A stretch of DNA of 64,000 nucleotides from Escherichia coli (GTDB lineage Bacteria > Pseudomonadota > Gammaproteobacteria > Enterobacterales > Enterobacteriaceae). The position numbers are program-made. Location: NCBI RefSeq assembly GCF_048403405.1, contig NZ_CP183129.1; one strand, given 5' to 3'. The number at the start of each line of letters is the position of its first letter. Position 1 is the stretch's first letter. Of the stretch, positions 44,601 through 47,600 are shown piece by piece.

Positions 44601-47600
44601 ACTGACGGACAATGAGATCCGGTTACTGAACAGTTTAACCATTGAAGATCTGCATTATCTTTCTCAAAGTCCGGTCTCCATTATTACCTGCCAGATCCAC
44701 CGGGAGAATTTACGGTTATTACTGACCCGGGCAAAAGAAGTTCACCGTCAAAATCAGATGATTGAACGCTGTCTGAGACTGGGGGCATCCATCGATTTGC
44801 TGAATCAGTATTTTGGCATGACGTCACTGGAGGTGTCAGCCCGTCGGCGTTTGTCCGGGATCCGGGGAAATGCTGGCCGTTCACAGCGGCTGTCAGATGT
44901 GCAGCAAACGGAATTATGGTATCGCTGGAAAGAGGAGGGCATGCCGGAGCCGGATGATCCGGATTGTCTTCAGATCATGGTGTCCTGTGCCGAAAAAATG
45001 AATGTCTCTCTGACCACGGTATGGAATTCGGTTCAGGAATGGCACCGGGACGGCATACTGAATTCAGCTGACAGGGGGAAATATCATGCCGGATAACAGG
45101 AATATCAGTCATCATCAATCCGCCCGGATATTTCCGGAATGTGTCACGCCTGTTCCGGAGCATATTCAGCGGAAGGCAAACGGGTTATTGCTACGTTATT
45201 TTTCGGGAGAACGACTTTGTAAAAAAGTGAAATGCGGTGGAAAAAAGGGCGGTGTTTACCCGGTATTGAAAATTGATATTGGTGCATTCTGGCGTCTGCT
45301 CAGTATGGACCAGGGGCAAAGCTGGAAGCTGATGAGCCATGAACGTTATAACAAGATGATTAGCCGGTAAGGGCAGAATATTCAACATCATGATCCTCAG
45401 TATATTGAGACTGCCTCTTTACGGTGCGGTATTTTCACCGGAGGAGGCAGCTATAAGTGTATTCAGGCATGAAATTATTTTTGTGTGGGGCATAAGATGC
45501 AATTTCCTCCGGACAGTATTATTCAGTTTTCATTAGAAAAAATGCGGCAGCAACTGCATCACCGGCAACACAGCCAGCCCGGCACGGCACTGCGCAGTGG
45601 ATTGATTTACGCCGGCAATGTTCATGATGCAATCCCCCGGCAATTATTGCTGGAATCCCGACTTTCCCCGGTTGATAAACTGACCTGGATGATGATCCGC
45701 CTTCATGCTCAGCAAAATGAGGGGGCCGTATTTCCGACCTATGATGACTTACAACTCCAGTTAGCCACACCCCACAGCGATAAAGCCTCGCGGGAAACGG
45801 TCAGCAGGGCACTGTTAATGCTGAGGCTGACGGGCTGGCTCAGTTTATGCCATCGGGTCAGGGATAAACGGGGGCGTATCAGAGGAAATATCTATATGTT
45901 ACATGATGAGCCGGTGAATGCATTTGATGCAGAGACATTAGATCCACGCTGGATGGATGTACTGGAAAAAAGTTGTTATCACAAAAATAAGAGTGTGCGG
46001 TGCGTGGCCCGCGCTGCGCTGACTGCCCTGAAAACCGAGCCGTCAATGCGACATCAGCATACCAGAATGCAACTCATTGAGCAGCGGCTTGAAAGTCTTC
46101 AGACACCGGAAGCGCTGGCAGACAGGCAACGCCGGATACTCAATGGGCAGACGGCACAACTTCATCCGGGTAAACATAAAAAAAATCGAGCCCAGTGTAA
46201 AACACCGGATTTGAAAATCGAACTCAGGGAAAAAAATGATGAAAAAAAACCGGGTACGAAAATCGAACTGAGTACACAAACCCAGTCTGATTCAGGGGTA
46301 CGAAAATCGAACTGTTACGTACGTAATACTTTTACACAGAGTGTAAAAAATACGTACGTAGATCAGGGAGAGCAATATTTATCGGGTACTCAGGTGCAGG
46401 GGCTGCATCAGTGGATTGATGAGAATGATCGGCAGATGCTGGAAAAACAGTTACAGGCGTTGCCGGAAGAAGCCGCAATATCGATTGTGCAGCAACTGAC
46501 ACAGGGGGTGAGGACAGGAAGTGTACGTAATCCGGTGGGGTATGCCTTGCAGCTATTAAAGGCAGCCCGTGAAGGGCGATATCACTCCGTTTCCCCAGCA
46601 GAAACGGGGATGAAAAGTGCGTCTTTACAGAAAATGTCAGGTACTCCGGATGTATCACAGCACACGCAAACCAAACCGGAGAGAACGGAGAGAAGTAAGG
46701 CGTCTCAGGGGGGGATGGGTGCCCCTGATATTGCACGTCAGTACCTTCAGCGTTTTCGCCGTACGCTCATAGGGATATCCAATGAGCAATGAAGGCGTAT
46801 TCAATAAATCACCCGTGTTTCCACTGGAAACAGTGCTCAAAACTTAACCGGTGTTTCCACTGGAAACAGTGCTCAAAACTTAACCGGTGTTTCCACTGGA
46901 AACAGTGTTTAAAAATTGGGTTTTTCTTATCCGGGTAGGAAGGTCCGGAACGCGATATTTCGCTTTCCGTAACGAAATCTGCATCATCGAGAGTAAAGAA
47001 TTTAACAAGCTATGGAGCAGTCTGGTTAACGATATGGGCATAGAGATATTTTCGTACATATAATTTCACTCTGATATTTACTTTAAACTGATCTTATTGT
47101 TTTTTGCCCACTTTCTTAATCTTCCATTAGCGTTGGCGTAAGGCGAAGATGTGTTAAATGAGATCATTCTCCCCATCGTCCATTTTGTGTACCATAGTCT
47201 TCCATACAAAATATCATCGGTACGCTCATCAATAAGTTTCACAACTTCATTTTTTACAGCCTGAAGTTCAGCTACTAACAATTCATAACTTAACTCACTG
47301 TAATCTGAGTAAAATTTTTGAGCAAGAAGACTAAGTTGATTCCATTTATAGCCAGTTTCCGGAAAATCGACAGGCAGACCTTTAGCATCAAAAGTGATCC
47401 ACTTTACAACAAGAGCATTCCATCCAAGCAGATATGAAACAAGGTCATGAACACTTATCTTCGTTCCTTTGGCGTGTCCATCCATTGAGTTATCTGAAGT
47501 CATTTCTGGCGGGATTGCGTTGAGGTAACTAATTAATTTACTAAAACTTTTATCAATAGCTAAAAGCAGCTCAGCTTTTGTTTGTGGCACACTCATGAAG

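Follow-up and report, generated by a model that had tools for sequence, protein, structure and literature searches.

Does a gene for a ClbS-like protein, borne on a conjugative element and away from any colibactin biosynthetic gene, encode a defence against colibactin? This question is raised by a 64,000-nucleotide stretch of Escherichia coli contig NZ_CP183129.1 (assembly GCF_048403405.1), hereafter the window, in which a first-pass annotation had described an orphan clbS-like gene as cargo of an integrative and conjugative element (ICE). We find that the gene is intact and that its product retains the catalytic tyrosine of ClbS, and we trace the gene to a transposase-deleted, ISEc53-like insertion sequence (IS) nested in ICEPm1. 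Judged from its relatives, the product most likely hydrolyzes the cyclopropane warhead of colibactin, which would inactivate the compound and confer resistance.

The clbS-like gene and its product

The clbS-like gene is an intact minus-strand open reading frame (ORF) running from an ATG at 47596 to a TAA stop at 47078, exactly the interval proposed at first pass, and in the RefSeq annotation of identical E. coli genomes this interval carries the name 'ClbS/DfsB family four-helix bundle protein' (WP_000115888.1). The Shine-Dalgarno sequence 5' of the ATG, AAGAGGAAattcttcATG, is a good match, and AAGAGGAA precedes the start at proper spacing, making a strong ribosome-binding site (RBS). An alternative, longer ORF opens at an upstream TTG and reaches 47659; the ATG is the start also chosen by RefSeq and by the crystal structure 5COF. 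The 172-amino-acid product matches Pfam family PF08020 (DUF1706) at E = 5.7e-52 across model positions 1–166 of 166, as well as phrog_4809 (E = 5.2e-75). Among solved structures its closest match, at E = 4.6e-103, is an 'uncharacterized protein' of E. coli (5COF), followed by ClbS itself (PDB 6ANR, E = 3.4e-53) and, more distantly, by the DfsB-family structures 5COG, 5CIV, 4N6C, 5CQV and 5COM. In BLASTP the identity is 52% to ClbS (over 166 residues) and 90% to the 5COF-type protein borne by ISEc53 (over the full length). Membership in the DUF1706/ClbS-DfsB family, as claimed at first pass, is confirmed far beyond chance, and the fold is predicted from the solved relative 5COF to be a four-helix bundle forming a single domain of ~170 residues. 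The Pfam search also returns a weak resemblance to DinB_2, and a PADLOC scan matched no known anti-phage defence model.

The same Pfam family includes DfsB, and the product could accordingly be read as a DfsB-type 'sibling lethal factor' precursor, which after release would be cleaved to yield a cationic, helical peptide lethal to neighboring cells. Its distant match to 5CIV, a 'Sibling bacteriocin' (E = 2.7e-17), speaks for this, and Mäklin et al. (10.1101/2025.11.17.686825) raise the possibility for the ClbS-like proteins of E. coli. The protein is, however, far closer to ClbS than to the Brochothrix/Paenibacillus-type protein, no export or processing partner adjoins its gene (the element holds that one gene and a dead transposase), and no immunity gene is present, and we regard a bacteriocin precursor as highly improbable.

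ClbS is a cytoplasmic enzyme that requires Tyr55 and opens the colibactin cyclopropane by hydrolysis, so that DNA alkylation is prevented (10.1101/431098); the same preprint, citing Tripathi et al. 2017, reports that the Y55F variant loses both cyclopropane hydrolase activity and protection. The window protein was aligned with the ISEc53 allele, ClbS and homologues from Mixta, Snodgrassella, Metakosakonia, Gilliamella, Acinetobacter, Salmonella and Yersinia (10 sequences in all). Tyr55 is kept, in the motif LVSYLLGW, as are all 48 columns that are invariant in this alignment, and the first-pass expectation that the protein follows the pattern of ClbS is thus borne out down to the catalytic residue. 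The surrounding motif LVSYL(L/I)GW is conserved, and the longer pattern GHAKGT...LVSYLxGW is common to the window protein and ClbS (E. coli WP_000290498, 170 residues), which also resemble each other in length. The Mixta theicola homologue P0124, 81% identical to ClbS, has Trp and not Tyr at position 55. A ClbS-like protein of Mixta theicola (80% identity) belongs to a panel reported as protective (PMC8907063), and, provided that P0124 is the panel sequence, its Trp55 sits uneasily with the inactivity of the Y55F variant of ClbS.

The panel in question, published by Silpe et al. in 2022, established orphan clbS-like genes as protective: the ClbS-like proteins of E. albertii, Kluyvera intestini/Metakosakonia, Snodgrassella alvi, Mixta theicola and others protect pks-negative bacteria (PMC8907063). 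Like the window gene, these are stand-alone clbS homologues that lack other clb genes and often lie near mobile elements, an association that here takes the form of an ISL3-family, ISEc53-like remnant inside ICEPm1. The identity of the window protein to ClbS falls inside the tested range of 25–80%, and the window allele, as far as the text shows, is not in the panel (PMC8907063). A defence against colibactin producers would, by analogy, agree with these published experiments.

ClbS in the strict sense, taken as near-identity or a match to a ClbS-specific curated model, does not extend to the window protein, half of whose residues differ. It might instead be a hydrolase or detoxifier of ClbS/DinB-like fold whose real substrate is another electrophilic or DNA-alkylating metabolite, with colibactin at most a side substrate. 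The limited identity to ClbS would allow this, as would the resemblance to DinB_2 and the very wide spread of the family, which extends to plant-associated Dickeya, Pectobacterium, Erwinia and Rahnella, genera that may never meet colibactin, and to commensal Clostridia (10.64898/2026.03.30.715271). Yet protection against colibactin was seen with every homologue tested, even at ~25% identity (PMC8907063), the catalytic tyrosine and its motif are conserved, and the carriers are gut and urinary Enterobacterales, whose niches are shared with pks+ E. coli. A different principal substrate thus appears unlikely, and we retain colibactin hydrolysis as the preferred function.

The ISEc53-like element and its place in ICEPm1

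A segment that recurs in hundreds of E. coli chromosomes, prophages and plasmids is 89.8% identical to positions 46969–47707 of the window. In one such prophage locus (L004), 35-nucleotide (nt) terminal inverted repeats (IRs) at 6835–6869 and 8709–8743 enclose an ISL3-family ISEc53 transposase gene and, just upstream on the same strand, a ClbS/DfsB gene, and because both genes sit inside these repeats we take ClbS/DfsB to be a passenger gene of ISEc53. The module of ISEc53 and ClbS/DfsB is carried by pUTI89, pUM146, pRS218, pSE15 and ~200 other E. coli plasmids, and the sequences of 5COF and of the ISEc53-borne protein (P0187) agree when compared by eye.

In the window the clbS-like gene adjoins the remains of such a transposase gene (Table 1). 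What is left of its start corresponds to L004 8001–8095, the 5' end of the annotated ISEc53 transposase, and is out of frame relative to ISEc53 (ORF compared with the sequence by eye). That the short segment to its left is unrelated filler was considered and rejected, as it aligns to the ISEc53 left end: window 46899–46971 matches L004 6829–6901 without gaps at a score of 44, where shuffles give a mean of 17.3 (sd 2.8, max 28; z ~9), and this left end is ~64% identical to that of ISEc53. Alignment of the left to the right IR within the window is weak (score 20; shuffles mean 15.6, max 23). The right end lies inside the 89.8% identical block, and terminal inverted repeats were counted at both ends. 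There is no intact DDE transposase gene, ~95 nt of its 5' part (frameshifted) and ~30 nt of its 3' part remaining. On these alignments, the element is an ~800-bp ISEc53-like (ISL3-family) derivative with both ends kept, from which an internal deletion of ~1.1 kb, its junction marked by the diverged left end, would have removed the transposase. Its GC content is 36.7%, against ~50% in the flanking ICE DNA.

The ISEc53-borne ClbS/DfsB of pUTI89-type plasmids, ST131 chromosomes and lambdoid prophages, which is the 'ClbS-like' of Mäklin et al. 2025, is among the closest known relatives of the window gene: the two genes are 94% identical in nucleotides, and both lie upstream of an ISL3-family transposase, whole or residual, inside the same terminal repeats. 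They differ in that the window holds another allele with a truncated transposase and a diverged left end, and in their carriers, F-type plasmids and prophages for the former and ICEPm1 for the latter.

The derivative is flanked by the genes for an STY4528-family replication protein and a PFL_4669/AcaB-family protein, amid 36-bp tandem repeats. Because 11.9 copies follow one another without a break at this place (L003 5645–6073) in a related ICE from mouse E. coli (91–93% identical) that lacks the insertion, the IS was inserted into the array, and it may have removed part of it. A check for an 8-bp target-site duplication is to be read in this light, since with the insertion in a tandem array the flanks are repeats anyway. 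The core of the repeat, GTTTCCAcTGGAAAC, is palindromic, and the array looks like an iteron or regulator-binding array, a candidate oriV or AcaB site. The array of E. coli GN02323, which of the complete genomes is closest to the window, appears to differ by about one unit. The first-pass description as ICE cargo therefore stands as regards the ICE and has to be amended as regards the cargo, the gene being the passenger of a transposase-deleted, ISEc53-like IS nested in a 36-bp array.

Table 1. Coordinates of ICEPm1, its end, and the ISEc53-like element with its flanking repeats in the window
Feature	Position	Strand	Basis and remarks
ICEPm1 part, ~24.7 kb	39245..64000	.	Annotation of identical genomes; runs off the window end
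Attachment-site repeat, 51-bp exact tRNA-Phe 3' end	39245..39295	-	Exact match to GN02323 tRNA-Phe; ICEPm1 end
36-bp tandem repeat, 2.9 copies, core GTTTCCAcTGGAAAC	46811..46914	+	Tandem Repeats Finder; left of the insertion
Diverged IS left end: left-IR-like sequence and last ~30 nt of transposase gene	46915..46968	.	Ungapped alignment to L004
Transposase remnant, first ~95 nt, frameshifted	46969..47063	-	89.8% identity to L004 8001–8095
clbS-like coding sequence, 172 residues, DUF1706/ClbS-DfsB, Tyr55 kept	47078..47596	-	ORF, Pfam, PDB and RefSeq
Leader with RBS and right terminal IR of the ISEc53-like element	47597..47714	-	ISEc53 homology up to 47707; IRs after L004
Last 36-bp repeat copy	47708..47750	+	To the right of the insertion; homology to the ICE backbone from 47715 on

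The ICE that carries the clbS-like gene is ICEPm1, as long-range identity and a shared integration site indicate. ICEPm1 has been reported in essentially all urinary Proteus mirabilis isolates and also in other Enterobacterales. Homology to Proteus ICEPm1 loci begins at 39245, at the tRNA-Phe repeat of 51 bp, and ICEPm1 is described with a 52-bp direct repeat at tRNA-Phe (PMC11278526). From 39245 to 57619 the window is 99.8–99.9% identical to loci carrying the exact protein, probable Proteus and Klebsiella loci included, and over 18.4 kb it is 99.8% identical to P. mirabilis FDAARGOS_60, a listed carrier of ICEPm1 at tRNA-PheV (PMC11278526). The same backbone recurs in all 10 of the contexts of the exact protein that were fetched. 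GN02323 is 99.9% identical over window positions 30001–48000, and there the ICE continues beyond the window with TonB receptors, a nonribosomal peptide synthetase/polyketide synthase (NRPS/PKS) siderophore cluster, taaP and a full TIGR037xx-type type IV secretion system (T4SS), followed by TraD, TraG, the TraI relaxase and an integrase, to end at pheV beside yqgA. The island had also been considered as a decayed ICE remnant, with strain M24 showing IS debris after the cargo; the T4SS, relaxase and integrase of GN02323 rule this out. Compared with ICEPm1 of P. mirabilis HI4320, an element of the SPI-7/PAPI-1/ICEHin1056 type, the likeness thus covers the tRNA-Phe integration with its 51/52-bp repeat, the 99.8% identity and, as read in GN02323, taaP, the siderophore cluster and the T4SS, and the difference is that the element here has an E. 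coli host and an hly/pap pathogenicity island as its tandem neighbor.

Orphan status and the case for colibactin defence

In stretches of matching genomes equivalent to the window no clb/pks biosynthetic gene is annotated, which upholds the first-pass statement for the window. Unlike clbS, whose true context at the end of the clbA-S cluster by clbQ is seen in locus L005 and in GN02323, the clbS-like gene lies outside a pks island, with an IS remnant and ICE replication genes as its neighbors. Carriers were sought with a 3.2-kb query, and their pks status was read by appending clbQ-clbS DNA (from L005) and comparing the number of matching places per genome. The locus is carried by 13 of 5426 complete E. 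coli genomes; clbQ-clbS adds exactly one place in four of these (CRE287, HM670, GN02323 and elppa4) and none in the other nine, which on this count lack clbQ-clbS. A further ~700 E. coli records match the query at just 80–90% identity, and those inspected carry the ISEc53-borne gene. A direct check of this count in GN02323 bears it out: clbC through clbS are annotated there in the stretch viewed (2.95–2.99 Mb), with a bona fide clbS (WP_000290498.1), and the pks island lies 1.18 Mb from the ICE. The designation 'orphan' is therefore only partly right: it holds for the window and most E. coli carriers but fails for GN02323, the genome most like the window, and some hosts of the window allele are, in contrast to those of the orphans of Silpe et al., pks+. 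For the main hosts of the ICE, such as Proteus, the gene is probably an orphan. At least 1000 contigs carry the exact protein, whose entry reads 'MULTISPECIES [Enterobacterales]', with Klebsiella, Proteus, Morganella, Enterobacter and E. coli among the named sources. Clb-positive hosts are also on record, as clbS-like genes occur in many pks+ isolates (Mäklin et al. 2025, 10.1101/2025.11.17.686825).

Several observations weigh against a role in colibactin defence. DUF1706 members are also described as bacteriocin precursors (DfsB). In the closest genome the host already has clbS, and the clbS-like gene would be redundant there. An NCBIfam scan at E ≤ 1 returned no family, any ClbS-specific model included, and hence no equivalog-level assignment. 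Residue 134 is Leu in the window protein and Pro in both ClbS and the ISEc53 allele; the column is variable across the family in the 10-sequence alignment. The searchable literature yielded no assay of this allele, and experiments on E. coli clbS-like genes are still needed according to Mäklin et al. (10.1101/2025.11.17.686825). Finally, a consensus scan for promoters and terminators on the coding strand upstream of the gene gave no hit, a consensus sigma-70 promoter included, and expression is therefore unproven. Enzymatic activity, expression and protective phenotype of the allele are properties that we infer.

The promoter result bears on whether the gene is used at all. The intact ORF might be a silent hitch-hiker left behind by a decayed IS, unexpressed in ICEPm1 and of no consequence for fitness, a view to which the destroyed transposase and the absence of a detected promoter lend themselves. 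It may also draw on a second ISEc53-like/ClbS copy on the same ICE, which has decayed to a fragment of ~50 codons with an internal stop. Against such a view, the ORF is intact and identical across genera on all those contigs while the adjoining transposase decayed, the strong RBS is kept, and the dN/dS of 0.35 against the paralogous ISEc53 allele indicates that the gene is under purifying selection. We judge a silent passenger to be rather improbable.

Two further observations concern the leader. A search for LexA boxes (CTGT-N8-ACAG, at most one mismatch) in 47597–47760 found zero sites, so there is no evidence of SOS control. Between the right end of the IS and the RBS (47597–47680, minus strand) lies a perfect 8-bp palindrome, ACACCATA-N9-TATGGTGT, kept in the ISEc53 copy with one change. 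As an RNA structure it was rejected, its fold being no better than that of shuffles (z = -0.45); it could be an operator.

The course of events that we propose for a gene acting in colibactin defence is as follows. The gene would have arrived as the passenger of an ISEc53-like, ISL3-family IS that landed in the 36-bp array between the replication-protein and PFL_4669/AcaB genes of ICEPm1, and subsequent loss of the transposase would have fixed it in the ICE. Its product would be a cytoplasmic ClbS-like four-helix-bundle enzyme that inactivates colibactin by hydrolyzing the electrophilic cyclopropane warhead, so that, when colibactin is present, host DNA would be protected and resident prophages kept from SOS induction. 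Conjugation of ICEPm1 would then spread the gene among Proteus, Providencia/Morganella, Klebsiella, Enterobacter and E. coli, most of these hosts probably being without a pks island.

ICEPm1 in its host and as a possible route for resistance

The part of ICEPm1 in the window is its replication/partition end, which reads parA, dnaB-PI, parB, DUF2857, a parE-like gene and the STY4528-type replication gene up to the IS with the clbS-like gene, and PFL_4669/AcaB, topB, STY4534, rpn, fimbrial remnants and TonB receptors after it. Within it, a ParE-family toxin-like gene (45086–45370) overlaps the end of the DUF2857 gene (neighbors 44428–45096) in what forms an ICE maintenance module, and the two may be an addiction or toxin-antitoxin-like pair that stabilizes ICEPm1.

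Directly left of the tRNA-Phe repeat stand a tyrosine integrase (~37783–39048) and then an hly/pap pathogenicity island, and because this second integrase and island adjoin the ICEPm1 end we read the locus as two islands in tandem at pheV. Positions 11001–36000, with hlyA/hlyD, an ISEc22 transposase, a sensor histidine kinase and others, are 100% identical to ST73-type genomes such as ATCC 25922. GN02323 also has a tcpC island and the ybt high-pathogenicity island, which together with the ST73-type identity fits a B2 uropathogenic host.

Other traces of ISL3-family elements are found nearby. Just past the window end, the same ICE holds the second ISEc53-like remnant (L001 38911–39181, equivalent to window ~64,900–65,180), 85% identical to ISEc53 and adjoining IS110/IS3 debris, in which the start of the transposase gene accompanies the C-terminal ClbS/DfsB codons; with this decayed copy, ICEPm1 has been struck at least twice by ISEc53-type IS. 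A separate fragment of an ISL3-family transposase gene, with 83% identity to that of ISEc53, is located where the window carries the pathogenicity island (3580–4351).

Concept and gene family are already published, and what is added here is detail, not a new principle. After the 2022 report on protective orphans, a 2025 preprint reported that the clbS-like genes of E. coli, whether chromosomal, in prophages or on pUTI89-like plasmids, lie 'next to a single ISL3 family transposase' and proposed that they confer colibactin resistance (10.1101/2025.11.17.686825), and a 2026 preprint lists ClbS-like homologues in P. mirabilis pangenomes, as a hypothesis (10.64898/2026.03.30.715271). Neither ClbS nor DUF1706 occurs in the one ICEPm1 paper searched for them (PMC11278526), and in a cluster look-up none of the Mäklin accessions A0A376RIA6, A0A2C5TQB2 and A0A631IX87 was matched to the window allele. 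What appears modestly new is that ICEPm1 has this allele as a constant component, borne by an ISEc53-like element with deleted transposase within a repeat array, together with the second, decayed copy.

Tentatively, one might go further and suppose that colibactin immunity is spread by ICEPm1 among Klebsiella, E. coli and the urease-positive uropathogens Proteus, Providencia and Morganella by way of a transposase-less, passenger-only ISEc53 derivative whose two ends would leave it movable in trans by plasmid copies of ISEc53. Where pks+ E. coli is part of a mixed community, in the gut or on a catheter, this would protect the host and stop colibactin-triggered SOS from destabilizing the ICE and prophages; we consider this wider scheme possible and would not call it likely. 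The nesting of a passenger gene in a dead IS, and of that IS in an ICE, illustrates how a larger mobile element comes to hold a resistance gene permanently. If the allele protects as its relatives do, ICEPm1 would be a conjugative route for colibactin immunity, with a bearing on prophage induction by colibactin and on how pks+ E. coli competes with other pathogens of the gut and urinary tract.

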